Shown here one piece after another: positions 5,290 through 57,257 of a DNA stretch of 64,000 nt. Both the position numbers and the translations under genes were made by a program. The number at the start of each line of letters is the position of its first letter. Position 1 is the stretch's first letter. Under the pieces are notes generated by a model, which was given only the letters and a program-made list of their open reading frames with translations, did not search any database and was not told the origin of the DNA. This DNA is from an uncultured Acetobacteraceae bacterium (GTDB taxonomy: Bacteria > Pseudomonadota > Alphaproteobacteria > Acetobacterales > Acetobacteraceae): contig CAXTVZ010000001.1 in NCBI GenBank assembly GCA_964247685.1, forward strand, positions 56,800-120,799. Reading direction: 5' to 3'.

Positions 5290-5318
5290 CGCTTACGCGC
5301 TTCCCGCGTAGAGAGCAA
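5290..5318 (-). promoter_or_regulatory. promoter-like repeat, fused to palindrome site
   Basis: TTGCTC-tctacgcgggaagcgcg-TAAGCG; -35 is the right arm of CAACAtaaTGTTG. Confidence 0.5.
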
Positions 5319-5328
5319 CATAATGTTG
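5316..5328. promoter_or_regulatory. CAACA-N3-TGTTG palindrome (operator-like)
   Basis: CAACAtaaTGTTG between divergent starts 5241(-) and 5472(+). Confidence 0.55.
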
Positions 5329-5471
5329 CGCCTCTCCCAACCGCTGGCGCAAAAAACGAACGCAGCTCGTTACTTGGTCCGAGCAATCTTGCAATTTCCG
5401 CCCAGTGTTCCACAAGGCAATAGCGCAGCACTTTCAGCACTGAGGCGTCGGCGCGCCGCCTGGAGCACCGT

Positions 5472-6383
5472 ATGTATGCGGCAAGAAGCCCCGTCACCAA
5501 GAGGTCGGGCGTGACGACTGACGCGCCCAAAGACAACAAAAAGTTGGGCCAGTCGCGCCCCGCAAAGCACGGCCTGCGCGCCGATGGTAGGCCGCGCAAG
5601 CGGCCGCGGCCTTACGCTGGCGAGAGCACGCTACCGCCCGATCCGTCCGCTGCGGATGAAGTGCAAGCCGCGTCGCGCGCCCGCTCGTCCGCCGGCGTGT
5701 TCATGGAGACCGAGGTCCGGGCGAGCAGGGTGGTCAAGGCGGAGACGGAGCACGGCCGCTCGGTTCGTCTGCTGGCGGACGACCGCGCCGACCACCGCGT
5801 GCCGTCGATCCGTCGCGAGGTCATCACCGGTGGGCTCGACGCCGACGGAGAGGCAATCACCCTGCGCGCGCCCAGCGTCGAGGACGGAAGCTGGCGAGAC
5901 CCTGACGACACTGTGCCGAACGCCAGCCGCGTGCCGCGCCGGGTGCGCGCCAACCGGCGCGCCAACAACCTGCGCTGGATGCAGAAGCGCGGAGTTGCCC
6001 TGAGCGACGACCACGTGACCGCCGGTGAGCTCTACGAGCAGGACTACGAGACGGCGCACATCGGCAGGTTTCCCGGCGCACCACCGCCGGAAATCCGGGG
6101 CACGCCGGGGCCTGGCGACTATTCGCGGTGCATCGACAAAAGCCGGATGTTCAACGAGGCGGAGGCTGCCGTTGGCCACTTCGGCGCCGACCTGCTGCGC
6201 CACGTCGTGCTCGGCCGCGAGGGATCCGCGCCAGGCGACATCAGCTCGTGGGCGGCCACCAAGCAGGTTGGCGGCAGACAGCTCGACCGCAAGGCGGCCG
6301 TCGGCGTGCTCATCGCCACGCTGGAAATCCTGGTTGGGCACTACGGACGCCGCATCCGCGACAAGCAGAAATCCGAGGCGTAG
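5472..6383 (+). CDS. hypothetical protein, possibly DNA-binding (DUF6456-like, unverified)
   Basis: 303 aa, GGAG 6 nt upstream of ATG, basic N-terminus; RWMQKRGVALSDDHVTAGELYEQDYE and C-terminal LIATLEILVGHYG recall DUF6456-type proteins. Confidence 0.5.
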   Translation: MYAARSPVTKRSGVTTDAPKDNKKLGQSRPAKHGLRADGRPRKRPRPYAGESTLPPDPSAADEVQAASRARSSAGVFMETEVRASRVVKAETEHGRSVRLLADDRADHRVPSIRREVITGGLDADGEAITLRAPSVEDGSWRDPDDTVPNASRVPRRVRANRRANNLRWMQKRGVALSDDHVTAGELYEQDYETAHIGRFPGAPPPEIRGTPGPGDYSRCIDKSRMFNEAEAAVGHFGADLLRHVVLGREGSAPGDISSWAATKQVGGRQLDRKAAVGVLIATLEILVGHYGRRIRDKQKSEA

Positions 6384-6499
6384 CCGGTCTCGCTAAGCGG
6401 CTTCGGTCGTTGCGTGAACTGATTTCTGGCAGGCAGCAACGCGCGCGCTCGCGTATACGCGCGCGAGAGGGGTGCGACTTGACCCGGCTCGCCGTCCAA

Positions 6500-6597
6500 C
6501 GCTTTGTTACGCTGTCGCCCGGCCCGGTGTGCCGGCGGCATGGTCGACGTTTCCTCCCTAAACTTGGCGCGGACCGGATCGGCCCGCGCTTTTTTTT
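6500..6597 (+). ncRNA. candidate sRNA or 3'UTR-derived RNA with anti-SD motif
   Basis: GC hairpin region, single-stranded UUUCCUCCCUAAA (6550-6562), then intrinsic terminator; no convincing ORF. Confidence 0.2.
6567..6597 (+). terminator. rho-independent terminator
   Basis: GCGCGG-accggatcggc-CCGCGC followed by T8 (6590-6597). Confidence 0.7.
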
Positions 6598-6850
6598 GCT
6601 CAGTGCATGCCGCCGCCAGACACGGGCGCGCCCACCGGCACGCCAGCGACACGCGCGGTGTTCCACTTGTGGGCGTAGTGGCCGTCGACCTTGATCGCGC
6701 CGTCCTGAACGCTCGGTCGACCGCCGCGACAACGCCTACGGATCGTATCGCTTCTTTCACCGCCCGGTGGCCGCCCAGCAGGCGTAGGTGCGCCTGACCG
6801 GCAGGCGGCGAGAGACAGCGAGGTATTTTGCGGTTTTCGCAAAGAACTGC

Positions 6851-6879
6851 TTGCAACGTGCGCGGAAAGCGCGTAAATC
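6851..6879 (+). promoter_or_regulatory. promoter-like repeat with conserved spacer
   Basis: TTGCAA-cgtgcgcggaaagcgcg-TAAATC, 8 nt upstream of leader box. Confidence 0.5.
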
Positions 6880-6887
6880 AATCTTAC

Positions 6888-6907
6888 GCCAGGGCGACGT
6901 GCCCGGC
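6888..6907 (+). promoter_or_regulatory. leader stem-loop box
   Basis: GCCAGGGCGACGTGCCCGGC, ends 21 nt before ATG 6929. Confidence 0.55.
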
Positions 6908-6928
6908 GGCAGCGCGGAGGCTCCGGCC

Positions 6929-7201: not shown

Positions 7202-7546
7202 ATGACCTACCAAAGCCCAGTCCAGCTCACGCACGTGATCGCCGCGTTCCAGATGCACCCGACCTTGCACCGGATGGTTGACGCGACCTGCTACTGTTTC
7301 GACAGCGGCCAGCGCTTGTCGGTCTACCTGGCGGACGATGCGGTGTTCGCGGAAGCGGGAACCGGCCTGCTTCCAACCGATGCGGAGGCTGCGTTCATGC
7401 GCGAGGTCGCGGGGCGCACGACATTTCAGCAGCTGCCCGCTCAGCTGCGGCGAGGTAAGCCTGTCGGCCCGCGCGGCCTGGGGGCAATGACGTTTTCTGT
7501 TGCCGCCTCGCCGAAACTGCTTGCTCTGTGCGCGGAAAGCGCGTAG
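7202..7546 (+). CDS. hypothetical protein
   Basis: 114 aa ORF; 3' end reads through the next promoter-like repeat. Confidence 0.55.
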   Translation: MTYQSPVQLTHVIAAFQMHPTLHRMVDATCYCFDSGQRLSVYLADDAVFAEAGTGLLPTDAEAAFMREVAGRTTFQQLPAQLRRGKPVGPRGLGAMTFSVAASPKLLALCAESA

Positions 7547-7549
7547 AAC
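7521..7549 (+). promoter_or_regulatory. promoter-like repeat with conserved spacer
   Basis: TTGCTC-tgtgcgcggaaagcgcg-TAGAAC. Confidence 0.5.
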
Positions 7550-7557
7550 TGAATCAC

Positions 7558-7577
7558 GCCAAGGGAACCGCCCGGGC
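7558..7577 (+). promoter_or_regulatory. leader stem-loop box
   Basis: GCCAAGGGAACCGCCCGGGC, ends 18 nt before ATG 7596. Confidence 0.6.
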
Positions 7578-7595
7578 GTGCCGACGGAGAGACCC

Positions 7596-8507: not shown

Positions 8508-8536
8508 TTGCTCGGTGCGCGGAAAACGCGTAAGTC
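8508..8536 (+). promoter_or_regulatory. promoter-like repeat with conserved spacer
   Basis: TTGCTC-ggtgcgcggaaaacgcg-TAAGTC. Confidence 0.5.
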
Positions 8537-8544
8537 AATAACCG

Positions 8545-8564
8545 GCCGAGGGGACGTCCCAGGC
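8545..8564 (+). promoter_or_regulatory. leader stem-loop box
   Basis: GCCGAGGGGACGTCCCAGGC, ends 20 nt before ATG 8585. Confidence 0.6.
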
Positions 8565-8584
8565 CGCACCCAAGGACGAAGCTG

Positions 8585-8755: not shown

Positions 8756-8770
8756 AGCCAACCGCCACCG

Positions 8771-8791
8771 GCCAAGGGCGCTGTGCCCAGG
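8771..8791 (+). promoter_or_regulatory. leader stem-loop box (intercistronic)
   Basis: GCCAAGGGCGCTGTGCCCAGG, ends 20 nt before ATG 8812. Confidence 0.55.
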
Positions 8792-8811
8792 TCAAGCACC
8801 AGGATGCCGTC

Positions 8812-9195: not shown

Positions 9196-9211
9196 CCGAC
9201 CAGCCAGCACG

Positions 9212-9231
9212 GCCAAGGGATCGTCCCGGGC
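9212..9231 (+). promoter_or_regulatory. leader stem-loop box (intercistronic)
   Basis: GCCAAGGGATCGTCCCGGGC, ends 19 nt before ATG 9251. Confidence 0.6.
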
Positions 9232-9250
9232 CGATCGACAGGAGCCTGCA

Positions 9251-9927: not shown

Positions 9928-9956
9928 TTGCTCCGTGCGTGGAAAGCGCGTAAACA
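9928..9956 (+). promoter_or_regulatory. promoter-like repeat with conserved spacer
   Basis: TTGCTC-cgtgcgtggaaagcgcg-TAAACA. Confidence 0.5.
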
Positions 9957-9965
9957 TGAGTCAGC

Positions 9966-9986
9966 GCCAAGGGGTGTGTCCCGGGC
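9966..9986 (+). promoter_or_regulatory. leader stem-loop box
   Basis: GCCAAGGGGTGTGTCCCGGGC, ends 18 nt before ATG 10005. Confidence 0.6.
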
Positions 9987-10004
9987 GTCTCGAAGGAGCC
10001 AGCC

Positions 10005-10381: not shown

Positions 10382-10394
10382 CAACAAAATGTTG
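10382..10394. promoter_or_regulatory. CAACA-N3-TGTTG palindrome (operator-like)
   Basis: CAACAaaaTGTTG; right arm starts TTGCCC-N18-TAGTCT. Confidence 0.55.
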
Positions 10395-10430
10395 CCCCAA
10401 GAAGGCACGCCGGCGTAGTCTCCCGGCCGG

Positions 10431-10450
10431 GCCGAGGGACGCACCCGGCC
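10431..10450 (+). promoter_or_regulatory. leader stem-loop box
   Basis: GCCGAGGGACGCACCCGGCC, ends 18 nt before TTG 10469. Confidence 0.55.
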
Positions 10451-24625: not shown

Positions 24626-24638
24626 CAACAAAATGTTT
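24626..24638. promoter_or_regulatory. CAACA-N3-TGTTG palindrome (one mismatch)
   Basis: CAACAaaaTGTTT between divergent starts 24572(-) and 24705(+); TTGACG-N17-CAACTT on plus strand. Confidence 0.5.
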
Positions 24639-36909: not shown

Positions 36910-36922
36910 CAACAAAATGTTG
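36910..36922. promoter_or_regulatory. CAACA-N3-TGTTG palindrome
   Basis: gacaCAACAaaaTGTTGcg; TTGCGC-N17-CAGAGT. Confidence 0.5.
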
Positions 36923-39067: not shown

Positions 39068-39080
39068 CAACAAAATGTTG
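39068..39080. promoter_or_regulatory. CAACA-N3-TGTTG palindrome
   Basis: CAACAaaaTGTTG; TTGCGT-N16-TAATTC. Confidence 0.55.
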
Positions 39081-39466: not shown

Positions 39467-39472
39467 GCGGCT

Positions 39473-40964: not shown

Positions 40965-40978
40965 CAACAAAACGTTTG
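40965..40978. promoter_or_regulatory. palindrome family, degenerate
   Basis: gacaCAACAaaacGTTTG midway between divergent starts 40888(-) and 41052(+); TTGCCA-N17-TAATCG. Confidence 0.4.
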
Positions 40979-42418: not shown

Positions 42419-42464
42419 GCCGCCATCGCCGGCCTCGGCGGCGATCTTCGCTTGCGATAGCGCC

Positions 42465-42477
42465 CAACATATTGTTG
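42465..42477. promoter_or_regulatory. CAACA-N3-TGTTG palindrome, inverted flank orientation
   Basis: CAACAtatTGTTGtgtc, only 30 nt before ATG 42508. Confidence 0.45.
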
Positions 42478-42507
42478 TGTCGGACGAGCAACCCAGCCTG
42501 GCGAACC

Positions 42508-43515: not shown

Positions 43516-43525
43516 TCAAGGTGCG

Positions 43526-44232: not shown

Positions 44233-44238
44233 CGAAGC

Positions 44239-44267
44239 TTGCAAGCGCGGTGACTTTGCGCGAACGT
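44239..44267 (+). promoter_or_regulatory. promoter-like repeat, variant spacer
   Basis: TTGCAA-gcgcggtgactttgcgc-GAACGT, 6 nt upstream of leader box. Confidence 0.4.
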
Positions 44268-44273
44268 AACGCC

Positions 44274-44295
44274 GCCAGGGGCGCCGTGCCCGGGC
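44274..44295 (+). promoter_or_regulatory. leader stem-loop box
   Basis: GCCAGGGGCGCCGTGCCCGGGC, ends 18 nt before GTG 44314. Confidence 0.55.
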
Positions 44296-44313
44296 GAAGC
44301 CGAGGACCTGCCC

Positions 44314-47300: not shown

Positions 47301-49374
47301 CAAGCGGTTGGAGCGGCTGAAAGAGGGCTTCGAGGAACGCCTTGACCGGCTGTCCTCGCGCAAGGACGACGTGGTCACCATTGCCGAAATCGGCGTGGAT
47401 CAGATCGTCGTCGACGAGGCGCAGGAGTTCCGCAAGCTCTCGTTCGCAACCAACATGGGCACGCTGCGCGGCATCGATCCGGACGGCTCGCAGCGCGCTT
47501 GGGACCTCTACGTCAAGGTCAAGTTCATCGCCCAGTCGAACCCGACGCGGCCGCTGATCATGGCGTCCGGCACGCCTATCACGAACACCATGGGCGAGCT
47601 GTTCACCCTCATGCGCTTCATGCACGAGGTAGGGCTGATCGACCGGCTGGTGCACCAGTTCGACGCCTGGGCGTCGACCTTCGGCGAGACGCGCACCGAT
47701 CTCGAGCTGCAGCCATCGGGCCTCTACAAGCCGGCCACCAGGTTCAGCCAGTTCGTCAATGTGGCAGAGCTGATCGCGATGTTCCGCGCGGTGGCCGACG
47801 TCGTGCTGAAAGACGACCTGCGCGGCTACATGAAGCTGCCGCGCATCAAAGGCGGCAAGCGGCAAATCCTGACGTTCAAGCCGACGCCCGCCTTCCGCGC
47901 CTACCAGAAGGAACTCGCGCACCGCATCGCCCTGATCGAGCAGCGCAAGGGGATGCCGAAAAAAGGCCAGGACATCATCCTGTCGGTCATCGGCGACGGC
48001 CGGCACGCGGCGCTGGACATGCGCTTCACCGGCCCGGACGCCGAGAACGAGCCCGAAAACAAGCTGAACGGGCTCATCGCGAACGCCTTTAAAATTTGGC
48101 AGGAGACCAGCGGCTACCGCTACACAAACCCGGCAACCGGGGAAGCCTATCCGCTGCCCGGTGCCACGCAGATGATCTTTTCCGACCTCGGCACTCTGAA
48201 CGCCGTGGCAACGCGTGGCTTCTCCGCCTACGCGTGGATCCGCACCGAGCTGATCCGGCTCGGCGTGCCGGCGGAGCAGATCGCCATCATCCACCACTAC
48301 AAGCGCGCGGCCGAGAAGCTGGCGCTTTTTGCCGACCTTAACAGCGGTCGAAAGCGCTTCGTCATCGGTTCGAGCGAAAAGATGGGCACCGGCGTCAACG
48401 CGCAGCAACGTCTGATCGCGATGCACCACCTTGACGTTCCCTGGCTGCCGTCCTGGATCGAACAGCGGGAAGGGCGCATCGACCGGCAGGGCAACCAGAA
48501 CGACGAAATCGGCCTGTTTGCCTATGCGACGACTGGCAGCATGGACGCGCCAATGTGGCAGTTCAACGAGAGAAAGGCGCGTTTCATTGCCGCGGCGCTG
48601 TCGGGCGACCGCTCCATCCGCCGGCTCGACGACGTCGGCGACACCGTCGACCAGTTTGCTTTTGCCAAGGCGCTATCGAGCGGCGACGCGCGCCTGATGC
48701 AGAAGGCCGGGCTCGAAGCTGAGCTTGCCCGCCTGCATCGGCTGAAGGACTCGCACTTCGACGACCAATACAACGTGCGTCAGCGCGTCGACGGCGCGCG
48801 CGGCACGATCGTGCGCTGTCAAAAGCGCATTCCGCTGCTGGAGATGGACCTCGACAATCGCGTGGACACCCGCGCGGACCTGTTCCAGATGACGGTTGAC
48901 GGCAAGGCCTACACCGAGCGCAAGGCGGCCGGCGCCGCCTTGCTGGCGTTCGCGCGCGCCCGCAAAGCCGGCATGCAGGACGGCGAGTGGACTATCGCGC
49001 AGCTGGGCGGGTTCGCCGTGAAGCTGGACAGCGAAGTCCTTGTCGAGCGGTCGCGCGGCAAGGAGGTCGCCCGGTCGTGGTTCGCCCACCTTTGGATCAT
49101 GTTTAGCGCCGAGCCGACGAGGGTATCGGCGGACGTGGCGGCCCTAGAGCCGCTCGGCTTGGTCGCGCGGCTGGAGAACGCCGTGCGTGCTCTCGACTAC
49201 GACCTGACAACGACGCAGACGCGCCTGGCGGACGCCGAGAAGGACCTCCGGGAGTTCGAGGCGATGCTGCAGGACACCTTCGAGTTTCAGGACGAACTCG
49301 ATGCCAAAACCGACGAGCTGTTGACCCTCAACGAGTCCCTGGCGCGCAACACGGAAGCCCCTGTTTTGCTCTAG
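44314..49374 (+). CDS. N6-adenine DNA methyltransferase fused to SNF2-family helicase (DarB-like giant protein)
   Basis: LEPGCGTGLFLA, VIGNPPFSD; AVGAGKTFLM, VVDEAQEFRK, MASGTPITNTMGELF, QREGRIDRQGN; 1686 aa. Confidence 0.9.
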   Translation: MQQLNFFEVQAPRVSAATPPAENFSLLDSAEQGRGLAKTWKERAADNIAAIRLAQRIEAEFRPATLAECAQLIRFVGFGASDLANSLFPTKAGAFGQGWEQLGQALHAVAGREVTALARATQYAHFTPEYIVTAMWDAVRRFGFDGGRVLEPGCGTGLFLALAPKAIAQASVFVGIERDPITARIARLLHPLAHIETADFGQRHLPRCAEPFDLVIGNPPFSDRTVTADDAEGAGKLGLSLHEFFILRAVRMLRPGGLGAFVTSRYLMDKGSDLARAVLAADAELLGAIRLPRGSMRAAAGTDVVVDLLFLRRRDKRGAHPLSKPWVALGSVACTGLATSCTVNSFFAETPEAVLGNHAFVSSQHGPAYTCAPEPGLDLPGELAAAAERLASEQAFWPADAVLDADEADPVPDVNVRSVADGGTLREGSYFVDTDRLWQIVDGRAVAVAVKAGRGTEGIFQSHAAIIRGLIPIRDAVRDVLRAQVRNSASWAAEAARLRGAYDAFVKKHGPINHTVLSTTTVDDVVRVTDPETGEVLSETLEQRERTTARRPNLAPFLDDPDVWLVSSIESYDVDTGIAKPGAVFTERVIRQPTEPVIASAADALAVVLNEVGRVDIPRIGGLIFKPPAEVIRELGAAIFEDPETEQWVTADAYLSGAVRGKLKTAQRAAAEAGARYQRNVEALEAVQPTDLKPSEITARLGAPWVPVPVVERFILEVMRVRTTVHHTPAVASWTVEQPPFKGNAASTSEWGTQRRHAGDLLEDALNASIPRIYDVERDSSGKEIRTFNAAATEAAKEKLEKIKRAFEAWVWKEPSRADRLVRIYNDDYNNLVPRHFDGAHLQLPDASGIIEMRPHQKRGVWRVITAGSTYLAHAVGAGKTFLMAAALMEQKRLGLVSKPMMVVPGHCLAQAAREFLMLYPTARILVADETNFVKEKRQRFIARAATGNWDCIILTHSAFKFIPAPGAFERSMINEQLANYEELLLSVDENDRVGRKRLERLKEGFEERLDRLSSRKDDVVTIAEIGVDQIVVDEAQEFRKLSFATNMGTLRGIDPDGSQRAWDLYVKVKFIAQSNPTRPLIMASGTPITNTMGELFTLMRFMHEVGLIDRLVHQFDAWASTFGETRTDLELQPSGLYKPATRFSQFVNVAELIAMFRAVADVVLKDDLRGYMKLPRIKGGKRQILTFKPTPAFRAYQKELAHRIALIEQRKGMPKKGQDIILSVIGDGRHAALDMRFTGPDAENEPENKLNGLIANAFKIWQETSGYRYTNPATGEAYPLPGATQMIFSDLGTLNAVATRGFSAYAWIRTELIRLGVPAEQIAIIHHYKRAAEKLALFADLNSGRKRFVIGSSEKMGTGVNAQQRLIAMHHLDVPWLPSWIEQREGRIDRQGNQNDEIGLFAYATTGSMDAPMWQFNERKARFIAAALSGDRSIRRLDDVGDTVDQFAFAKALSSGDARLMQKAGLEAELARLHRLKDSHFDDQYNVRQRVDGARGTIVRCQKRIPLLEMDLDNRVDTRADLFQMTVDGKAYTERKAAGAALLAFARARKAGMQDGEWTIAQLGGFAVKLDSEVLVERSRGKEVARSWFAHLWIMFSAEPTRVSADVAALEPLGLVARLENAVRALDYDLTTTQTRLADAEKDLREFEAMLQDTFEFQDELDAKTDELLTLNESLARNTEAPVLL

Positions 49375-49379
49375 TGACA

Positions 49380-49392
49380 CAACAAAATGTTG
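49380..49392. promoter_or_regulatory. CAACA-N3-TGTTG palindrome
   Basis: gacaCAACAaaaTGTTGcg; TTGCGT-N17-CATATT with spacer CTCGCCC-ggt-GGGCGAG. Confidence 0.55.
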
Positions 49393-49461
49393 CGTCTCGC
49401 CCGGTGGGCGAGCATATTATCGACACACCGAGGCAACATCGCCAGGTGCAGCGCGGAGCGA

Positions 49462-49584
49462 ATGATGACGGCAGGATCCCCCGGCGAAAACCCCAATCCC
49501 CCGTATCAGGACGACCCGGTGAGGGTGCTGCTGCGCGTCGCCTTCATCTTCACCGTCTGCAACTACATCTGGCTGCACCTCTGA
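49462..49584 (+). CDS. small hydrophobic-tail peptide
   Basis: 40 aa; GGAG upstream; stop overlaps next start (TGATG). Confidence 0.35.
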   Translation: MMTAGSPGENPNPPYQDDPVRVLLRVAFIFTVCNYIWLHL

Positions 49585-50480
49585 TGGCGGCAGGCCTGTT
49601 GGCACACCGAAGCGGTGCGCAGGCGTCGTTGCTCGGGCCGGTCGCGTCGTCGCGCCGCCCGTCAGCCGAGGGCACCGCCGGCGCGGGCCTGAACCCGGAT
49701 CTTGACCAGTACTTCACCCCGACATGGGTGGCCGAGGCGCTGGTTGAGCAGTTTTTCCCAACGCTGGCGACCGATTTCGTTGTGGACGCCGGGTGCGGGC
49801 ACGGCGCGTTTTTGGGCGCCCTTCCGGCCAGCGTGGACGCGCTCGGGGTTGAGATCGACCCCGAGGCCGCCGCCATCGCTAGGCGCAACACCGGGCGACT
49901 GGTCCTGACGGGCGACTTTTTGGACGTCGAGCTCACGCGCCAGCCCACCATGATCATCGGCAACCCGCCGTTCCGCGAGGCGATCCTCGACGCGATGCTG
50001 GCGCGCGCGCACCTGCTGCTGCCGCGGGGCGGCCAGGTCGGGTGGGTGCTGCCGGCCTACGTCTTTCAGACGCCGTCGCGCGTGCTGGCGATGGCCGAAC
50101 GGTGGAGCATCGAGAGCAAGGCCATGCTGCCGCGCACGCTCTACCGCGGGCTGAAGGAGCCGCTCGCCTTCATGGTGTTCACCAAGGACGGCCGCAGGCT
50201 GCTGCAGGGCTTCGCCCTCTATCGGGAGGCGGCCGAGGTGGCCGCGCTGAGCGAGGCCTACCGGGTGGTGCTGTCTCGCGCGCCGCGCTCGGCGTGGGTG
50301 CGGTGCGTGGCCGATGCGGTGCGCACGATGGGCGGCACGGCGACGCTGCCCCAGATCTACGCCGAGATCGGCGGCCGCCGGCCGTCGCAGACGACCTGGT
50401 GGCGCGAGAAGGTCCGGCAGGTCGCGCAGGCACACCTCGTCCGGCTCGACAGCGGCACTTACGGGTTGGCGGCGAGGTGA
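49584..50480 (+). CDS. N6-adenine DNA methyltransferase (NPPF type) with C-terminal wHTH-like tail
   Basis: DQYFTPTWVA, VVDAGCGHGAF, IIGNPPFRE. Confidence 0.75.
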   Translation: MAAGLLAHRSGAQASLLGPVASSRRPSAEGTAGAGLNPDLDQYFTPTWVAEALVEQFFPTLATDFVVDAGCGHGAFLGALPASVDALGVEIDPEAAAIARRNTGRLVLTGDFLDVELTRQPTMIIGNPPFREAILDAMLARAHLLLPRGGQVGWVLPAYVFQTPSRVLAMAERWSIESKAMLPRTLYRGLKEPLAFMVFTKDGRRLLQGFALYREAAEVAALSEAYRVVLSRAPRSAWVRCVADAVRTMGGTATLPQIYAEIGGRRPSQTTWWREKVRQVAQAHLVRLDSGTYGLAAR

Positions 50481-51802
50481 CTCGGGTGGCGGCGGATTTG
50501 CCTTTTGCGGAGTTGCTGCGGGCCGAGGCGGCCAAGGTCGCCTTGCGGCTGCAGGAGTTGGACCGGCAGGCGCAGGCGATCCGCGCAGAGGCGACAGGCC
50601 TGATCGCCAAACAGGAGGCTATGCGACCGCTGCTCGACGCCTACCAGGGCGAGTTCGAGACGACGCCGCCCGTGCGGCTGCTGACCGTCGACCCGGGTGT
50701 TTCGGCGCCGCAGGCGGCGCGCAGAAGCGGCCCGCCGGCGCGCATGTGGACGGAAGAGCGAAAGACGCTGCTGGCCGAGCTCTGGCCAAAGGGGGCTTCG
50801 TCACGCGCGGTGGCGGACGCGCTGAACAGGCTGCCGGGTACCGCCATCGAGCCCAAGCGGGTGGGTCCCAAGGCAGCCATTCTGCGGATCTACCGGAGCC
50901 CGGATGGGGGGCACCCCGGCCGGCGACCCGCGCTGACCGCGCCGGGCGGCGTCACGCCGGTGCCGGCGACGCGCCGGCCTGCTGGTCGAGTAGCGCGCTT
51001 TGCCAACAAGACGAGTCACCCAGCCAACCGCGAAGCCGCCTGCCTGCCGGCCGACCACTGGGCGATACAGGCGAGCGCATCGCAGTTCCGGACGCGGGTG
51101 TTCGCGCCCGCAGACGTGCCGCGCGTGCTGATTTCCGGGGAGAACTCGGCCAAGGTCGGCAAGCGCGTCACCAAGGGCCCGTGGGCGGGCATGCAACTCC
51201 ACACGCTCACGCTTGAGGAGCGGGCGACGTGCCCGAGCAGCTGCGGCCTGCTGCGCGAGTGCTACGGCAACGCCATGCCGTTCGCCCGTCGGCTGAAGCA
51301 CGGCCAGGCGCTGGTCGATCGGCTGGACCAGGAGCTGCGACTCAAGGCCGCCGAATATCCGGCGGGCTTTGTCGTGCGCCTGCACGTGCTGGGCGATTTC
51401 TACTCCGAAGACTACGTCTCGACCTGGGGCGGCTGGCTGGCGGACATCCCGCAGCTGCGCGTCTTCGGCTACACCGCCCACCAGGCGCGAACGCCGATCG
51501 GCGCGATGCTGCTGCGTCTCAACGAGGTATTCGCTGGCAGGTGCGCAATTCGCACCAGCGTCGAGCCCGACGCCGACCCCGAACCGATGCAGGCCACAAC
51601 GATCTGGCGTCAGCCGGAGGGCCGCGTCGTGCCGGAGGGCACCATCTGCCCGGCGATGACCGGCGGCACGGAGGCCTGCGCCACCTGTGGGCTTTGCTGG
51701 CACCCTGTGGCGGCCGCGCGGCGCATCGTCTTCATCGGCCACGGCATGACTCGCCGGTCGAGCGACGCGCAGCCTTTGGACGGCCAGGAGCAAGCGGCGT
51801 GA
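50477..51802 (+). CDS. GcrA-like DNA-binding domain fused to Cys-rich C-terminal domain
   Basis: GTGA overlap; MWTEERKTLLAELWPKGASSRAVADALN matches GcrA N-terminus (SWTDERVSTLKKLWLDGLSASQIAKQLG); CPSSCGLLRECYGN and CPAMTGGTEACATCGLCWH. Confidence 0.6.
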   Translation: MTRVAADLPFAELLRAEAAKVALRLQELDRQAQAIRAEATGLIAKQEAMRPLLDAYQGEFETTPPVRLLTVDPGVSAPQAARRSGPPARMWTEERKTLLAELWPKGASSRAVADALNRLPGTAIEPKRVGPKAAILRIYRSPDGGHPGRRPALTAPGGVTPVPATRRPAGRVARFANKTSHPANREAACLPADHWAIQASASQFRTRVFAPADVPRVLISGENSAKVGKRVTKGPWAGMQLHTLTLEERATCPSSCGLLRECYGNAMPFARRLKHGQALVDRLDQELRLKAAEYPAGFVVRLHVLGDFYSEDYVSTWGGWLADIPQLRVFGYTAHQARTPIGAMLLRLNEVFAGRCAIRTSVEPDADPEPMQATTIWRQPEGRVVPEGTICPAMTGGTEACATCGLCWHPVAAARRIVFIGHGMTRRSSDAQPLDGQEQAA

Positions 51803-52071
51803 GAGCGGTCCAGGCGCTTAGTGCGCAAGCGGCGCGGTGCCAGCCTGGCAGGCCGGCCGTGCTCACGGCCGATCAGGTCGCCGTCGGCGACATGCTGATG
51901 CGCGACGGCTACCCGGTCGAGGTGCGGCAGAAAATGTTGAGCCCGGACGGCCAGGTTTGCACGCTCGCCTGGGGCGAGGCGCGGGGCGAAATGATCATCG
52001 TGCTAACGGCCACGCCGCTCAGCGTGGTGGTTGGCGTCTGTTACGCGGGGGCTGTCTGGCATGAGCGTTGA
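51799..52071 (+). CDS. hypothetical protein
   Basis: GTGA overlap. Confidence 0.45.
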   Translation: MRAVQALSAQAARCQPGRPAVLTADQVAVGDMLMRDGYPVEVRQKMLSPDGQVCTLAWGEARGEMIIVLTATPLSVVVGVCYAGAVWHER

Positions 52072-52606
52072 AGACCTGCTGCCGACGGTGCCGGTGAGGT
52101 TCGACCTAGCGGCGGCCGAGCACGCGGCCGACGCCTGGGGCTGCAACTGCGGACCTGGTGCGCTTGCGGCGATGACTGGGCTGACGCTTGACGAGGTGCG
52201 CCCTTGTCTCGGCGACTTCGAGGTGAAGCGCTACACGAACCCCACCCTGATGTTCGAGACGCTGCGGCGGCTCGGGGTGTCCTACACCGTAGAGCGTCGC
52301 CTGCCGCTTGACTGGCCGCGGCACGGCTTGGTCCGGATTCAATGGGGCGGCCCATGGATGGCCGACGGCGTGCCTATCGGCGCGCGCTATCGGCAGACGC
52401 ACTGGGTGGGCGCCCGTCACACTCGCGGTCGGGCGGAGGTGTTCGACATCAACTGCATCAACGTCGGCGGCTGGGTGCCGATGGACACCTGGACGGCCGT
52501 GGTAGTGCCCTGGCTGCTACGCGAAGCCGTGCCGAGAGCCGACGGCTCGTTCTCGCTAACGCACGTCGTCGAGGTGAGCACCGCGCTGGCCGGTCGCGAG
52601 CATTGA
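52061..52606 (+). CDS. papain-fold (C39-like) cysteine peptidase-like protein
   Basis: AWGCNCGPGALAAMTG candidate Cys, QTHWVGA candidate His. Confidence 0.45.
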   Translation: MSVEDLLPTVPVRFDLAAAEHAADAWGCNCGPGALAAMTGLTLDEVRPCLGDFEVKRYTNPTLMFETLRRLGVSYTVERRLPLDWPRHGLVRIQWGGPWMADGVPIGARYRQTHWVGARHTRGRAEVFDINCINVGGWVPMDTWTAVVVPWLLREAVPRADGSFSLTHVVEVSTALAGREH

Positions 52607-52668
52607 GCGTGTCCGCTGGCTTAGGTATGCCTTGCGCCGGCACGGGTGCATCTGCACAACTGGATACC

Positions 52669-53448
52669 ATGGCAGATCAACCGCAAGGCGACAGGGCCAG
52701 CGGGCGCGACATATCGATGAGTTCGACGCGCCTTCGGGAAATCCTGCACAATCTGAGCTGGTCGCAGAACGAGCTGTCCGTCGTGCTCGACTTTCGCGAC
52801 ACCGCGTCGATCCGGGCGATGGCGCGCGGCAAGAAGCGAGTCTGGCCCGTCATCGCCGCGTGGCTTGAACGACTGGACGCGTTCCAGGCGGCAAGCGGCT
52901 TCCCGGTCGGTATCCTCTGGTGGAGCGAAGAGTACCCGGAGGCTTTCGCACGCGCGGCCGACACGGCGCCAGACGAGGGCGTGAGGGCTTGGCTGGCCAG
53001 CGTCGTCGCGTTCCACGCCGCGCACCGGTGGCCGTCGGAGGACTGGAAGGTGGACGAGGAGGCGATGGCCGACGGCAGCCAGGCCGTGGCGGATCTTCGC
53101 ACGCTGGGCTTGCGCCTCTACGGCGACATCGGGCGGGCGCTGCGGCTCGACATGCGCTACGCGAAAGCCTGGCAGCGGCGTCCGCGCAACATGGTCAGCG
53201 AGGTGCTAGACTGGCTCAACGAGCTCGCCGAATACAAGCGGCACACGGGCTTCCCGATGGAGCTGCTAGTCCTGAACTGGAATCTGTCTGCCACGTTCGC
53301 CGGCGCGTTGTCGGCTGGAACTGCAGTGCCGGCTCAAGCGGGCGCCTGGATTGGCGATGCCCTCGAGTTCTACCAACGCAACAACGTGCCGGTCGGCTTC
53401 GAGCCCGAGCAGGACGCTGAAGAAGGGTTTCAAGCAACCGACGCGTAG
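52669..53448 (+). CDS. hypothetical protein with internal duplication
   Basis: Two similar modules (...VIAAWLERLDAFQAASGFPVGILWW / ...VLDWLNELAEYKRHTGFPMELLVLNW). Confidence 0.5.
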   Translation: MADQPQGDRASGRDISMSSTRLREILHNLSWSQNELSVVLDFRDTASIRAMARGKKRVWPVIAAWLERLDAFQAASGFPVGILWWSEEYPEAFARAADTAPDEGVRAWLASVVAFHAAHRWPSEDWKVDEEAMADGSQAVADLRTLGLRLYGDIGRALRLDMRYAKAWQRRPRNMVSEVLDWLNELAEYKRHTGFPMELLVLNWNLSATFAGALSAGTAVPAQAGAWIGDALEFYQRNNVPVGFEPEQDAEEGFQATDA

Positions 53449-53474
53449 CCAAGCGGGTGCTGACCGGCCGCTGC

Positions 53475-53487
53475 CAACAAAATGTTG
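53475..53487. promoter_or_regulatory. CAACA-N3-TGTTG palindrome
   Basis: CAACAaaaTGTTG; TTGCGA-N17-TAACGC. Confidence 0.55.
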
Positions 53488-53520
53488 CGACCGCTTGCGG
53501 ATGCGAGTAACGCTCACTTA

Positions 53521-53542
53521 GCCGAGGGGGCCGTCCCCGGGC
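53521..53542 (+). promoter_or_regulatory. leader stem-loop box
   Basis: GCCGAGGGGGCCGTCCCCGGGC, ends 17 nt before ATG 53560. Confidence 0.6.
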
Positions 53543-53559
53543 GAACCGGAGAGCGTGCC

Positions 53560-53730
53560 ATGCACAGCAGCGCAAAGCTTCAGCCTTTTCCGCGTCGAGA
53601 CTCGCAGGTGCGTGCCACCCGCGGCCGTCACCGCAAGCACCTCGCACTTTGGTCGCGCATCGAGGCGCGCTGCAGGCGCAGACGCGCTCGGCGCGCTTGG
53701 CGAGCGGCTGCTCGACGCATCGTTCGCTGA
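53560..53730 (+). CDS. small Arg-rich protein
   Basis: 56 aa, 17 Arg and 3 Lys (20 of 56 basic); position fixed by promoter/box layout. Confidence 0.4.
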   Translation: MHSSAKLQPFPRRDSQVRATRGRHRKHLALWSRIEARCRRRRARRAWRAAARRIVR

Positions 53731-54098
53731 TGGTGTTTCGGGCAAGATACAGGTGGCGGCAGGCCGGAACCGTTCTCACGATCATCGATGAGAACGGCCC
53801 GGTGTCCGTCACCAACGACATCGAGCGCGTGCTTGCCGACTTGAGCGAGCGCGGCGTAAGCGCACTGGACGAGCTCGTCATCCTCTACCGGGACAGCATG
53901 GGGTCGTGGTGCGGGGTCGGCACGATGGGCGGTCGGTTTACCGACTTCGTCTCCGTCGGTCCCTTTTGGGGCTGTGAGCGTGCGTCAGTTGTCGAACTGC
54001 TAAAGCAACGCGGGCGTCAATCGACGTCGGCCGTGCTCAGTCTTTGCTCGGCTTGCCAACTTCGCTCCTCTTCCTGCGGTTGCGCTCACGACGGCTGA
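53730..54098 (+). CDS. hypothetical protein
   Basis: TGATG overlap; VLTIIDENGPVSVTNDIERVLADL; 3' end overlaps convergent CDS by 62 nt. Confidence 0.5.
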   Translation: MVFRARYRWRQAGTVLTIIDENGPVSVTNDIERVLADLSERGVSALDELVILYRDSMGSWCGVGTMGGRFTDFVSVGPFWGCERASVVELLKQRGRQSTSAVLSLCSACQLRSSSCGCAHDG

Positions 54099-54369
54099 TT
54101 TCTTTCTGCACGGCGTTCCTGACGAAATCAGTCCTGTCTTCGTGCGGCATCAATACCTCCGCAATCTTCGCGAACGTTCCCTCGGCGAACCGCGCAGTCA
54201 TGTCCTCGGCCCACTTCTTCTTGCGTCCCACAGAACGGGGGCTAGCTGATACGAGAAACTCCGTCAAAATCGCCCCATATGTCATACGACTTATTGCAGC
54301 CTTATCACATATGAGGTATCGCGACAAATACCAGCGCGTTTCTGCGCTTAATGTAGGCTGCTTGTTCAT
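54037..54369 (-). CDS. ribbon-helix-helix-like DNA-binding protein
   Basis: MTARFAEGTFAKIAEVLMPHEDRTDFVRNAVQKEISRRE; low GC. Confidence 0.5.
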   Translation of the reverse strand: MNKQPTLSAETRWYLSRYLICDKAAISRMTYGAILTEFLVSASPRSVGRKKKWAEDMTARFAEGTFAKIAEVLMPHEDRTDFVRNAVQKEISRRERNRRKRSEVGKPSKD

Positions 54370-54389
54370 TTCAGTTGAAGGTAGGGCCG

Positions 54390-54752
54390 ATGGCTTCCAC
54401 CGAGGGTTTCGCTGACGAGACAGAGGCCGTTCTCCACGCGCTCTGGGCCGAGCACGAGCGCACGTCCCGCGCGATCGACGACTACGAGGTCGACAGCCCC
54501 GACGACCTGGACGCGATCCGGGTGCTGTCGCGTGAGCGCATGCTGCTGCGCTTGCGGGCAATGCAGATCCCAGCCTCGACAAACGGGCAGATGCGTTTCA
54601 AGGTCGGCATTATCCGGCGCTACCTGCCGCCACCGACCGAGGACAACCCGGACTTGCTAGCGGCGCACAGCATCCTTGACGATGTCGACCGCATTTGCGG
54701 GGGTCTTCGCAAGCTGCCCGAGCTCGACAGCATCCCGGAGCACATGCCGTGA
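54390..54752 (+). CDS. hypothetical protein
   Basis: ATG 54390 (TTG 54375 possible). Confidence 0.5.
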   Translation: MASTEGFADETEAVLHALWAEHERTSRAIDDYEVDSPDDLDAIRVLSRERMLLRLRAMQIPASTNGQMRFKVGIIRRYLPPPTEDNPDLLAAHSILDDVDRICGGLRKLPELDSIPEHMP

Positions 54753-55006
54753 GCCGTCACGAAGCCGAGGCGCTAAACCCTGACCATTTTGTCCGCGTTG
54801 GTTGGGACCCGCCGCTGCAAACCTTCTTCATCCAGGTGCACGACAGCAGGGTGCCTCACGACGAGGAGTCGGTCGTGCACTGGCAGGGCTGCGGCTACGC
54901 CGAGCTGCCGACGATCGAGAGCCTGGCCGAAGCGGGCAGGGGCTATACGACGGTGCCCGAACAGCTGCACCTCACACTGCAAGAGGACAAGCTGCTGAAT
55001 CGATGA
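54749..55006 (+). CDS. hypothetical protein
   Basis: GTGA overlap. Confidence 0.5.
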   Translation: MSRHEAEALNPDHFVRVGWDPPLQTFFIQVHDSRVPHDEESVVHWQGCGYAELPTIESLAEAGRGYTTVPEQLHLTLQEDKLLNR

Positions 55007-55605
55007 GCCACAGCTTGGCCGACCTGCTGACCGGCATAGAGCCGCCCCGGCACGACACCGGGTGCAAGCGCCTGCTGCGCTGGCCGGCCGACACGCGCAC
55101 GACAGCCGTGTTCGACGGTCCGGGCGACTGCTACCGCTATGCTCTGACTCAGACTTGGGATCCGGCGCGGCCGTTGGCGATGTTCGCGCTGATGAACCCG
55201 AGCGGCGCCAGCATAGATTTCGGTGATTCGACGCTGCTGCGCACCGGCTGGTTCGCCCGCCGCTGGGGTTACGGCGGCCAGCTCATCGCCAACGCGTGCG
55301 CCTGGCGGCGCACTGACAACGAGGATCTGCTGGCGGTGCCCGACCCTGCCGGCCCGCAAAACCTGCACTGGGTCTGCCGGCTGGCGGCCCAGGCGCAGCT
55401 TGTCGTCATCGGCCACGGTCAGCTGCCCGCCAAGTTGCAGCACCATGCGGACGGCATGGTCGCGGCGTTGCGCGCCGCCGGGCACGACCTGCACGTGTTC
55501 GGCCTGTCGAAAGCCGGTGTCCCGGTGCATCCCCTGGCGCGCGGTAAGCACAGGCTTTCCGACGAGACGAAGCCGATCCGGTGGGCGCTCGACGCGCCCC
55601 TATGA
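55003..55605 (+). CDS. DUF1643-like protein
   Basis: YRYALTQTWD, MFALMNPSGAS, DSTLLRTGWFARRWGYGG, GVPVHPLA. Confidence 0.65.
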   Translation: MSHSLADLLTGIEPPRHDTGCKRLLRWPADTRTTAVFDGPGDCYRYALTQTWDPARPLAMFALMNPSGASIDFGDSTLLRTGWFARRWGYGGQLIANACAWRRTDNEDLLAVPDPAGPQNLHWVCRLAAQAQLVVIGHGQLPAKLQHHADGMVAALRAAGHDLHVFGLSKAGVPVHPLARGKHRLSDETKPIRWALDAPL

Positions 55606-55627
55606 GAGCAGCAGAAGGGCGAGAGGC

Positions 55628-55942
55628 ATGACGCGAACCTACACGGAAGCGCTGGCTGCGGCTGACCTGAGCACCGAGGGCGAGGTGACCACCGTCTTCG
55701 TGCAAGATTTCAGTTCTCGGCCTGCGGAACCCGACCCGGCAGTCATTGAGCGTTTGGGCGACACCTACCGCCAATTCGACACGCTCAGGGAAGCGGCCGA
55801 GTGGCTGCACTCCGTCGGCGCGATAATGGCCCGCATGATGATCCTACCCCGGCCCATCATAAGCATGCCGGCGGACCGCCGGCCGCCGTCGGCCGAGCAG
55901 GAGACGCGTTCAGACGGGCGTGGCATGAGCACCGCCCTATAA
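55628..55942 (+). CDS. hypothetical protein
   Basis: GAGAGG upstream. Confidence 0.5.
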   Translation: MTRTYTEALAAADLSTEGEVTTVFVQDFSSRPAEPDPAVIERLGDTYRQFDTLREAAEWLHSVGAIMARMMILPRPIISMPADRRPPSAEQETRSDGRGMSTAL

Positions 55943-55950
55943 TGCCGCTC

Positions 55951-56376
55951 TCAGCAGGCTAGCGGAAGGTCGTGCGACACGTAGGTCTGTGCGGCCTCGG
56001 CCACGCGGAGCCAGGGAACCTGCAGGCGCTCCGGCAGGCGGGAGAAGGGCACCACGACGGCGTAGTTCTGTGAGGCCGCGTAGAGTGACGCGGCGATGTC
56101 CGTGCGGGACATCGTCAGCTTCGGTTCGCTTGCCATGTCCGTAGCCAACGGCCGCAAGCTGGTCCTGCCGGGATTGGACCTGAGCTCGGTCAGGCGCTCA
56201 ATTGGGACACCGAGCGAGCGCAGCACGGTCTCCGCAATGAGTTCGCCCAGCCCGCCAGGCTCCGGGGTTTCGGCCAGCAGCTCGGTCAGTTCGTCCTTGC
56301 TCATGCAGGTCGCCTTGACGACCCGGCATATTGCCCGGGCGGCTTCACGGTACATCCGGTGCTCGGTAGGAGCCAT
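55951..56376 (-). CDS. hypothetical protein
   Basis: Start uncertain (ATG 56376 or 56460). Confidence 0.45.
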   Translation of the reverse strand: MAPTEHRMYREAARAICRVVKATCMSKDELTELLAETPEPGGLGELIAETVLRSLGVPIERLTELRSNPGRTSLRPLATDMASEPKLTMSRTDIAASLYAASQNYAVVVPFSRLPERLQVPWLRVAEAAQTYVSHDLPLAC

Positions 56377-56679
56377 CACCCAGTTCCCCTGCGCGGCCGA
56401 CTCGGCCGTGTGGATTAACGGCCACGTGCAACAGGATTTGCAGAAATCGCGAGTGCACACGCATTAACTTCGGCGCGATCACAGCCTGTTGTATAGCCGA
56501 ACCTGTCGTCGCGCTCGGCAACCGCAGCCGCTAGCGCTGAGCTTTCCTGCATAACCCGGCGCTAAAACCGCCCGCGTCAGTGAAAAACGATCAAAAATAG
56601 AACAGCTTTCACTGGATTGTAGCAAAAGTTAGAGCTTTCGTCGGCCCGTTACTGGTATCGTTGCACGGTTAGAGGGCGT

Positions 56680-56952
56680 GTGATGTCGAGAGATACTTCG
56701 CAGATCGGCGAGGCGGAGGCGGTTGTAGACCTAATGCTGGCGGGTGATTTGCTGGCGCGCTGCAACTGCGGGTGGCGACTGGTGCTCGACGGCCGCGCGG
56801 TTGAGGAGACGGTCGTGGAGCGGCTGAAAACAGGCTCTGGCCTTGGCGGCCGGCTGCTGCCGATGAACGACCAGCTACCCGGCATGTCCGCGCAGCTGGC
56901 GCAGACCTGGCGTTGGGCTCGCGCGCGCGTTCGCCGGAGGGTGGCCGCATGA
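56680..56952 (+). CDS. hypothetical protein
   Basis: AGAGGG upstream of GTGATG. Confidence 0.4.
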   Translation: MMSRDTSQIGEAEAVVDLMLAGDLLARCNCGWRLVLDGRAVEETVVERLKTGSGLGGRLLPMNDQLPGMSAQLAQTWRWARARVRRRVAA

Positions 56953-57164
56953 TGCTCGGTGCGCGGCGGCGCTGGTGGCGCATCAGTCTCGTTCCGCTGG
57001 TCGCAGCCGCACCGCGGCCGAACCGCACCGCCGGCGGGCCGGTGCCCGCGCAGGCGGCCTTCGGGTTCGTGTCCACGCAGGAGGCTGGCCGTGTCGTCGA
57101 CTTCAGCCAGGACGCCGGATTGATCGACCGGATGTGCCCCTTCGAGCGCGACAACACGGCCTGA
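56949..57164 (+). CDS. hypothetical protein
   Basis: ATGA overlap; weak. Confidence 0.3.
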   Translation: MMLGARRRWWRISLVPLVAAAPRPNRTAGGPVPAQAAFGFVSTQEAGRVVDFSQDAGLIDRMCPFERDNTA

Positions 57165-57243
57165 GTTGGCATAAGATTCATTCTGCGACCGAGGAGCGCG
57201 TCGGTCTACCTCGGCACTCGCCTCCCCCGAGAGCACCGCCGCA

Positions 57244-57257
57244 CAACAAAATTGCGG
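57244..57257. promoter_or_regulatory. palindrome family, degenerate
   Basis: caCAACAaaaTTGCGG, right arm lacks TG. Confidence 0.3.

Follow-up and report, generated by a model that had tools for sequence, protein, structure and literature searches.

The DNA analyzed here, a 64,000-nucleotide stretch of contig CAXTVZ010000001.1 from an uncultured Acetobacteraceae bacterium (hereafter the window), carries a recurring 13-base-pair (bp) palindrome, CAACA-N3-TGTTG, which nearly always forms part of a promoter. The window has a G+C content of 67%, and 84.6% of it is coding according to a gene map based on self-trained codon scoring. The exact pattern, CAACANNNTGTTG, occurs seven times (at 5316, 10382, 36910, 39068, 42465, 49380 and 53475) and was not found in any of 100 dinucleotide-preserving shuffles of the window. 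When one mismatch was allowed, 11 matches were detected against 0.94 expected, the extra members being located at 24626, 5534, 46800 and 57308. A weight matrix derived from the sites gave ten strong sites with scores of at least 24.8, whereas all others scored 16.3 or less. CAACA-N3-TGTTG is a 13-bp dyad with statistically significant symmetry that is present in multiple copies. For comparison, we used the only close relative, a sister phage (contig NODE_106_length_118131 in ENA), from which two stretches, L071 and L072, were examined (46 kb in total).

A preliminary description of this DNA had proposed such a palindrome family and suggested a comparison with shuffled sequence; the enrichment is significant (7 versus 0) and, with the ten matrix sites, shows the family to be real. 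The strong copies listed at that time stand, but those at 5534 and 57308 had been missed. Two members that were called degenerate, at 40965 (two mismatches) and 57244 (left arm plus TTGCG), are indeed so, and they are conserved in the sister phage in the same forms, as is the one-mismatch copy at 57308. That all copies are intergenic is true for nine of the ten strong sites, though intergenic DNA makes up only 15% of the window; the exception, the near-perfect copy at 5534, lies inside open reading frame (ORF) 5472-6383. Two half-sites that had been included are probably chance occurrences: the one at 38461 is not conserved in the sister phage, and the one at 31357 sits in a low-G+C probable insertion that has no counterpart there.

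With the right-arm TTG as the anchor, we aligned the sites to read the anatomy of the control regions (Table 1), and all TTG trinucleotides in the window served as the background for their geometry. In each typical copy the last three bases of the right arm are the TTG of a -35 hexamer, and the elements follow in a constant order: (CAACA-AAA-TG)TTGCGN, 16-18 nucleotides (nt), TAAnnn or less often CAnnnT, 5-9 nt, a stem-loop, 5-9 nt, GGAG or AGGA as the Shine-Dalgarno (SD) sequence, 5-9 nt and the start codon. A leader hairpin 25-60 nt downstream was present at 6 of the 12 oriented sites versus 0.9% of the background (p ~6e-10). A TA-initial hexamer 16-18 nt past TTGnnn was likewise found at half of the 12, versus 4% of the background (p ~3e-6), and the remaining sites have CAnnnT-like hexamers or no recognizable -10. 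The promoter geometry that had been described for every copy is correct as to the TTG overlap and the six TA hexamers, but does not hold for every site, no -10 being recognizable at 42465.

Judged by these elements, the promoters appear to be of the sigma-70 type in an alphaproteobacterial flavor (TTGCGN, 16-18 nt, TAAnnn). Because the -10 hexamers lack the final T and are not called by the E. coli consensus, the assignment rests on the internal consistency of the set and on the leader. The dyad center lies 39-44 nt from the CCRAGG of the hairpin in both phages. Since the -10 ends 5-9 nt ahead of the hairpin, transcription probably starts at the hairpin base, and the dyad would then be centered at about -40 (approximately -38 to -42 over the sites). 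Promoters of the extracytoplasmic function (ECF) or sigma-54 type were also considered and rejected, as no AAC/CGT or GG/GC pattern was detected.

Table 1. Palindromes, promoters and leader hairpins of the window and their counterparts in the sister phage
Feature	Position	Strand	Associated elements and genes	Homologous site
Exact palindrome CAACATAATGTTG	5316..5328	-	Hybrid promoter: TTGCTC, spacer with CGCGGGAAGCGCG, -10 TAAGCG (5290-5295), hairpin 5260-5282, SD, ATG of gene 4579-5241(-)	L071 9802 (minus strand, again a hybrid promoter)
Near-perfect copy CAACAAAAAGTTG	5534..5546	+	62 nt inside ORF 5472-6383; no promoter features	L071 10033 (inside ORF in both)
Exact palindrome	10382..10394	+	TTGCCC, 18 nt, TAGTCT (10416-10421), hairpin 10429-10450, SD GGAGGA; precedes Rieske-like gene	L071 15261
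One-mismatch copy CAACAAAATGTTT	24626..24638	+	TTGACG, 17 nt, CAACTT; AGGAG, ATG 24705; no leader hairpin; possible minus-strand ORF from ~24573	
Exact palindrome	36910..36922	+	TTGCGC, 17 nt, CAGAGT (weak -10); begins 3 nt past stop of gene 36461-36907; heads genes 37055-39040	L072 4761 CAACAATCTGTTG
Exact palindrome	39068..39080	+	TTGCGT, 16 nt, TAATTC (39100-39105), hairpin 39112-39137, SD, ATG 39158	L072 5547
Degenerate copy CAACAAAACGTTT, 2 mismatches	40965..40977	+	TTGCCA, 17 nt, TAATCG (40999-41004), hairpin 41012-41033, SD; precedes GT2 gene (GTG ~41053); divergent gene 40379-40888(-)	Keeps CAACAAAACCTTTGCT
Exact palindrome CAACATATTGTTG	42465..42477		Inverted flank TGTC; 31 nt ahead of ATG 42508	L072 9477
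Exact palindrome	49380..49392	+	TTGCGT, 17 nt, CATATT (49413-49418), hairpin 49426-49448, SD, ATG 49462; starts 6 nt past stop of 1686-aa methylase/helicase gene	L072 15100 CAACATTCTGTTG (identical arms, other spacer)
Exact palindrome	53475..53487	+	TTGCGA, 17 nt, TAACGC (53508-53513), hairpin 53521-53542, SD GGAGAG, ATG 53560; follows gene 52717-53448	L072 17923 CAATAAACTATTG (symmetric double substitution)
Degenerate element CAACAAAATTGCGG	57244..57257	+	Left arm plus A-tract, then TTGCGG; reads CAACAAAATTGCG	Kept as CAACAAAAGTGCGG in L072
One-mismatch copy CAACTTTCTGTTG	57308..57320	+	-35 TTGACG, 18 nt, TAGGAA (57342-57347)	Conserved in L072
Class A promoter, example	6851..6908	+	TTGCAA, spacer with GTGCGCGGAAAGCGCG, TAAATC, hairpin 6887-6908	
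Class A promoters	6851-6886, 7521-7556, 8508-8543, 9928-9963	+	Repeat families D4/D5	
Class A promoters	4321-4356, 3206-3241	-	Repeat families D4/D5; anchored at 4356 and 3241	
Class-A-like variant promoter	44239-44267	+	Leader to 44296; heads 1686-aa gene	
Leader hairpin, example	53521..53542	+	GCC-RA-GGG-loop-CCC-R-GGC	
Leader hairpin copies	3180-3205, 3433-3455, 4296-4319, 5260-5282	-		
Leader hairpin copies	6887-6908, 7555-7580, 8543-8566, 8770-8793, 9210-9233, 9964-9988, 10429-10450, 39112-39137, 41012-41033, 44273-44296, 49426-49448, 53521-53542	+		

The two stretches of the sister phage show synteny with the window and encode proteins 40-93% identical to its own; the dyad, the leader hairpin and the spacer element described below are all present. 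Four exact palindromes occur in L072 (0 expected), and L071 has two exact and two one-mismatch copies (0.33 expected). At homologous sites the arms are conserved and the spacer varies: AAA is replaced by TTC at 49380 (CAACA-TTC-TGTTG), by ATC at 36910 (CAACA-ATC-TGTTG) and by AAC at 53475 (CAATA-AAC-TATTG), and the spacers seen with intact arms are AAA, TAA, TAT, ATC, TTC and AAC. Exactly two arm substitutions were found at four sites, two of which, in this small sample, stay perfect palindromes (CAATA/TATTG and CAACG/CGTTG); by our own estimate, the chance of each dyad-preserving double substitution is ~0.04. The CAACG/CGTTG form, CAACGAAACGTTG at L071 10033, is a perfect dyad within a coding region, and since the encoded residues differ between the phages (DNKKL versus NNETL), selection at this site acts on the DNA.

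The conserved arms, the variable spacer, the symmetric double substitutions and a TG that the core promoter does not require support the idea that the dyad symmetry is under selection and that a two-fold symmetric protein reads the arms, in agreement with the dimeric regulator proposed earlier. The same points make an incidental palindrome, or an A-tract of purely UP-like function, less likely.

That the TG is not a core requirement is seen from a second set of promoters, class A, in which the palindrome is absent. Aligned base for base, the two classes have the same TTGC, 17-nt spacing, -10, hairpin, SD and ATG. The two bases directly upstream of the -35 TTG are TG, as part of the dyad, in the palindrome class and GC in class A, where a conserved 13-nt element, CGCGGAAAGCGCG (CGCGGAAACCGCG in the sister phage), fills the spacer just upstream of the -10; this element is probably a second operator. 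Both the palindrome and the class A spacer element are found in one promoter at 5316 and again at L071 9802, each on the minus strand; at 5316 the two repeat families are thus truly fused, as had been noticed, but on that strand. The palindrome does mark a cis-regulatory class distinct from the CGCGGAAAGCGCG class, as previously suggested, but the territories given to the two were too narrow. The palindrome class is not limited to accessory and anti-defense modules, as it also heads the long 10.4 kb operon, the leftward early operon and the 57.4 kb operon, and the class-A-like promoter at 44239-44267 lies outside the 3-10 kb region to which the other class had been assigned.

The leader hairpin common to both classes occurs in 16 intergenic copies in the window, ahead of 16 genes. 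All have the same two-stem shape with a loop of 3-6 nt, a predicted free energy of -10 to -15.5 kcal/mol and a position 5-9 nt past the -10 and 5-9 nt ahead of the SD. Because the bulge sequences are conserved, the element may be a protein-binding 5' leader (acting in stability, processing or translational control) and not a plain hairpin. About 14 more copies were seen in the sister phage, and the copies at 8770, 9210 and 3433 are inside operons with no obvious promoter. The cassette also corrected several start codons (39158 instead of 39125, ~41053 instead of 40989, and ~10469, a TTG, instead of 10538) and indicated a small ORF from 53560.

Several individual sites deserve comment. The palindrome at 5316 lies between divergent genes, 75 and 144 nt from their starts, and its minus-strand promoter is complete. 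The plus-strand gene 5472-6383, which has a good SD and an ATG at 5472, appears to be served by a separate promoter and not by the dyad's own: a candidate ~70 nt downstream of 5316 reads TTGCAA, 17 nt, ACAAGG (TTGAAA, 18 nt, CAAGAT in the sister phage). This candidate has a dyad on either side, at 5316 and 5534, and the spacing of the two is 218 bp (231 bp in the sister phage). The copy at 5534, which shares 21 of 23 nt with the flank of 24626 (repeat family D8), is a probable auxiliary operator. At 24626 (~53 and 67 nt) and 40965 (~77 and 76 nt), as at 5316, the distances to the divergent starts are about as given before, but control of both directions is well founded only at 5316, the minus-strand -10 candidates at the other two sites being poor.

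At 42465, where the inverted TGTC flank was seen as described, neither a -10 nor a leader could be recognized on either strand. An identical 16-mer, CAACATATTGTTGTGT, occurs at the homologous L072 9477, likewise without promoter features, and we read the site as a putative operator-only copy. The whole control region at 39068 is unusually conserved (94 of 121 positions identical in the sister phage); an AT-rich block, CTGAAATTATCTGCGT (39040-39067), lies ~10-25 nt upstream of this palindrome and is almost identical in L072 5515-5546. For the operon 57417-59934, the copy at 57308 (CAACTTTCTGTTGACG, 18 nt, TAGGAA) gives a better promoter fit than the element at 57244.

Our preferred explanation is that the palindromes would be operators built into one class of phage promoters. 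A two-fold symmetric, sequence-specific protein would occupy the dyad and thereby co-regulate at least nine transcription units, and its binding would most likely repress, either to shut the operons off at a certain time or to silence them in a carrier or lysogenic state. We consider such a multi-copy operator, overlapping the -35 and regulated by one dimeric, most likely repressing protein, to be reasonably probable. Within the probability that we give to a regulator site, repression receives a somewhat larger share than class-II-type activation. Four points favor it: sigma region 4 must reach the -35 TTG, which is also the end of the right arm; class A promoters have equally good hexamers and no dyad, so that the dyad is not needed for the promoter; the conserved copies at 42465 and 5534 have no promoter features; and the likely promoter of 5472-6383 is bracketed by two dyads, as in looping repressors.

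It should be noted, however, that several observations weigh against this explanation. No binding protein was found among the window proteins scanned. When positions 36000-55000 were searched for the E. coli TTGACA/TATAAT consensus (at least 9 of 12 matches, with A2 and T6), none of seven sites was called, and the -10 is weak or absent at 5316 (plus strand), 24626, 36910 and 42465. Both at 40965 and at 57244, CAACAAAA persists next to a decayed right arm, as it does at the homologous sites of the sister phage, and the AAA spacer is on the transcribed strand in all eight AAA-type sites of the window; the left half may thus have an orientation-dependent, monomeric or UP-like role. A dyad near -40 is also near the classical position of class II activators. 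Finally, the motif is carried by one relative only, and its conservation is that of a single pairwise comparison.

Among the alternatives, the position of the dyad gives most weight to a class-II-type activator, a phage middle or late protein that would bind as a dimer at about -40, contact sigma region 4 or alpha and act after the class A promoters, which could be an earlier (early) class. Class II sites of CRP and FNR (-41.5), the cI site at lambda PRM, and the Mor and C sites of phage Mu (~ -43.5) lie at -41.5 to -43.5, and as in those systems the phage dyad overlaps the -35 and is common to a set of promoters, although its center, 39-44 nt upstream of the hairpin, would lie 1-3 bp nearer the predicted start. 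The palindrome promoters have only TTG plus C in the -35, as well as non-canonical -10 hexamers that the E. coli consensus scan rejects. However, the class A hexamers are equally weak in the absence of the dyad, so the core-promoter defect expected of a class II site is not seen; the TTG that sigma has to recognize is itself part of the right arm; and the conserved promoter-less copies at 42465 and 5534 are hard to explain for an activator. We regard activation as rather unlikely, though a serious rival.

Less probable still, to the point of being improbable, is the absence of any dedicated regulator, in which case an extended promoter module, an A-rich UP-like element plus the -35, would have spread by cassette duplication and its palindromy would be incidental. 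ACAAAA would occupy approximately -43 to -38, the place of the proximal UP subsite; the constant strand of the AAA spacer and the retention of CAACAAAA where the right arm decays also fit such a module. On the other hand, sister sites keep perfect arms with the non-A spacers TTC, ATC and TAT, symmetric double substitutions preserve the dyad, neither UP nor -35 recognition involves the invariant C1 and C4 or the TG ahead of the -35, and at 42465 and 5534 perfect copies have been conserved although no promoter is present.

Binding by a host or plasmid-maintenance factor, either IHF or a ParB/KorB-like partition protein with dispersed centromere-like sites, is very unlikely. By our own comparison, CAACAAAATGTTG matches most of the IHF core WATCAA-N4-TTR, but the match is partial even in AAA-spacer copies; it needs A at the first spacer position, which is T in five sites, the TAT, TTC and TAA spacers break the CAA, and IHF leaves the invariant C1, C4 and G10 unexplained. 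A plasmid-like lifestyle is possible (~120 kb, a resolvase, and methylase/helicase homologues on Roseomonas and Methylocapsa plasmids), and KorB of RK2 offers a parallel, as it binds 12 copies of a 13-bp palindrome, some of them next to a -35. However, the scan of the window proteins turned up neither a ParB-family protein nor any other partition protein; the product of 57417-58085 is ParB-N-like by eye, yet has no Pfam match. Its operon partners are 58085-59239 (phrog_11143, ATPase plus acetyltransferase-like) and 59236-59934, which has a formyltransferase homologue. In addition, the 18-mer ACACAACAAAATGTTGCG gave 23 hits across 185,579 genomes, approximately the chance number, and no multi-copy host. 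NrdR, LexA, CtrA, parS and LacI-type boxes were rejected because the register or half-sites differ, and recombinase or restriction sites were dropped for lack of support.

To look for the protein that might read the dyad, ~70 window proteins were analyzed with Pfam and PHROGs, and candidates were used in PDB sequence searches. No clear helix-turn-helix (HTH) regulator, no ParB, ParBc or KorB domain and only a few DNA-binding proteins were found among these ~70 proteins, and the PDB searches were empty. Three ribbon-helix-helix (RHH) genes had been named as candidates (29251, 31403 and 54037). The protein of 29251-29499 matches Pfam RHH_4, and those of 31397-31573 and 54037-54231 are RHH-like by reading of the sequence, Pfam finding nothing; but the sister phage, although it keeps the motif, has no equivalent of the segments that carry these three genes in its syntenic regions. 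An 11-bp inverted repeat, CATATGTCATA ... TATCACATATG (54276-54286/54303-54313), in the AT-rich divergent region upstream of 54037-54231(-), is likely to be the operator of that gene itself and unrelated to the CAACA dyad. The region ~29000-36400, which carries the RHH gene 31397-31573 and a serine recombinase (31642-32256), includes the lowest G+C content of the window (58-63% across 30-36 kb) and many small ORFs, and the gene caller performs poorly there. It has no counterpart between the sister homologues of 28997 and 36461, and is probably an insertion. The GcrA-like label given to 50486-51802 was not supported either: Pfam found only GP88 and DUF7227, the PHROGs match was phrog_2554, and no PDB chain scored below E = 0.49.

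Four weak leads are conserved in both phages. The first, 5472-6383, encodes an orphan 303-amino-acid (aa) protein with a weak match to DUF6456 (E = 0.039) and a single homologue, P0127 (59% identity, on NODE_106; L071 10001-10885). Its family has two members among 5.8 billion clustered proteins, both in motif-bearing genomes, and the gene start is bracketed by two dyads in both genomes. The second, 21654-21875 (73 aa), gave a four-helix model with a predicted local distance difference test (pLDDT) score of 76, whose top Foldseek matches were lambda-repressor-like HTH domains at non-significant values (E >1). The third, 52717-53448, is internally repeated and directly upstream of 53475, and its AlphaFold2 (AF2) model (pLDDT 40) was unusable; the fourth, 39853-40338, encodes a zinc-finger DUF3268 protein. 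The regulator is probably phage-encoded, and its gene may lie in the half of the 126-kb contig outside the window. We regard as quite unlikely, taken as a whole, a three-part control code of this ~120-kb alphaproteobacterial phage or phage-plasmid lineage, in which the dyad at -40, CGCGGAAAGCGCG in the spacer and the bulged leader hairpin would mark nearly every early or accessory transcript, with the dyad read by a protein of a new family, for which 5472-6383 would be the candidate, acting in the manner of P1 C1 or KorB.

The window proteins that were checked are singletons in a collection of 15 billion proteins. The nearest relatives of its terminase large subunit (TerL) are 60-69% identical, and those with names are prophages found in Aliidongia, Stellaceae and Kiloniellales; the probable host is thus an alphaproteobacterium that belongs to the Rhodospirillales or is close to them. 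No relative was found by a nucleotide search of annotated phage records. The motif was absent from the TerL- or methylase-related IMG/VR loci (L002-L018), as well as from L046 and from L047, a syntenic but more distant locus. The gene 44314-49374 encodes a 1686-aa fusion of an N6-methylase and an SNF2 helicase (WH_1, DUF8437, Helicase_dom), whose best match is P0129 on NODE_106 (70% identity); no match was detected in the genome-contig collection. Homologues with 57-59% identity are encoded on Roseomonas and Methylocapsa plasmids and in ArdC/SSB contexts that resemble leading regions, and the motif was absent from two loci with such homologues (L073 and L074, ArdC/ParB_N/SSB plasmid-type regions). 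The ~120-kb element may be a phage-plasmid, which is hinted at by the plasmid homologues of the methylase/helicase and by a resolvase at 478-1203. In a tail-fiber-like gene of 827 aa (17416-19899), direct repeats with 351-nt and 153-nt periods are nested within one another (17850-19550; D1-D3 and D6).

In metagenomes, too, the 18-mer ACACAACAAAATGTTGCG gave about the chance number of hits (23), and the combination of the dyad with GCCGAGGG gave none. When the half-sites were looked for in the full text of the literature, nothing beyond primers and other incidental matches came up. Apart from one locus, the 18-mer hits were single copies in unrelated, mostly low-GC DNA. That locus, L001 (IMGVR_UViG_3300010364_000030), is an unrelated 5.7-kb temperate viral contig that has, within 160 bp (2162-2326), one exact copy and two near copies (GACACAACAAGATGTTTG and CACCAAGTTGTTG) beside an integrase, an HTH_17 gene and an HTH_31/HTH_3 repressor-like gene. 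Arranged in this way, the copies resemble an operator cluster, and the context suggests that an XRE-type repressor can use the dyad as its operator. In the window, no homologue of the repressor-like protein of L001 was found. Six CAACA-N3-TGTTG-like palindromes within 450 bp of Alkalibacillus silvisoli, an unrelated low-GC Firmicute (L043, 896-1349), may be another operator array or a low-complexity repeat.

Among known systems, the operators of P1 C1 and RK2 KorB are similar in that ~10-12 copies of a short operator are scattered over a mobile genome of ~100 kb, at or beside the -35 of unrelated operons. The KorB operator OB, TTTAGCSGCTAAA, is a 13-bp palindrome with an odd center, as is the dyad here, whereas the C1 operator is an asymmetric 17-mer. 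However, the sequences are unrelated, no C1-like or ParB/KorB-like protein was detected in the window, and the phage dyad is nearly always fused to a promoter in one fixed register. The 13-bp pseudosymmetric operator of CopG (pMV158) and the lambdoid Cro/CI operators are likewise short dyads that include the -35, where a small dimer excludes RNA polymerase; these systems have one to three operators at one locus in contrast to ~10 promoters here, and the RHH proteins of the window are in segments absent from the syntenic regions of the sister phage. The stoperators of mycobacteriophage L5 are also 13-bp sites that occur many times in short intergenic spaces, are biased in orientation relative to transcription and, in one copy, overlap a -35. 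They are asymmetric, however, and bind their protein as a monomer; most of them lie inside transcription units and act there by stopping elongation, whereas the site described here is a dyad that rarely occurs outside a promoter. We do not assign the palindrome to the P1 C1, KorB, CopG or Cro/CI families, as it differs from their operators in sequence and a cognate protein family was not detected.

The palindromes are a real, conserved and lineage-specific promoter-operator family. They represent a fairly ordinary kind of phage control element and no new principle, as multi-copy operators overlapping the -35 are well known in phages and plasmids. What they provide is a regulatory map, with at least 12 class B and seven to eight class A promoters, predicted starts, leaders and corrected start codons, for an undescribed lineage of uncultured phages whose nearest relatives are Rhodospirillales prophages and plasmids, together with a small, testable set of cis-elements for finding the regulator and a portable promoter/operator pair for high-GC alphaproteobacteria.

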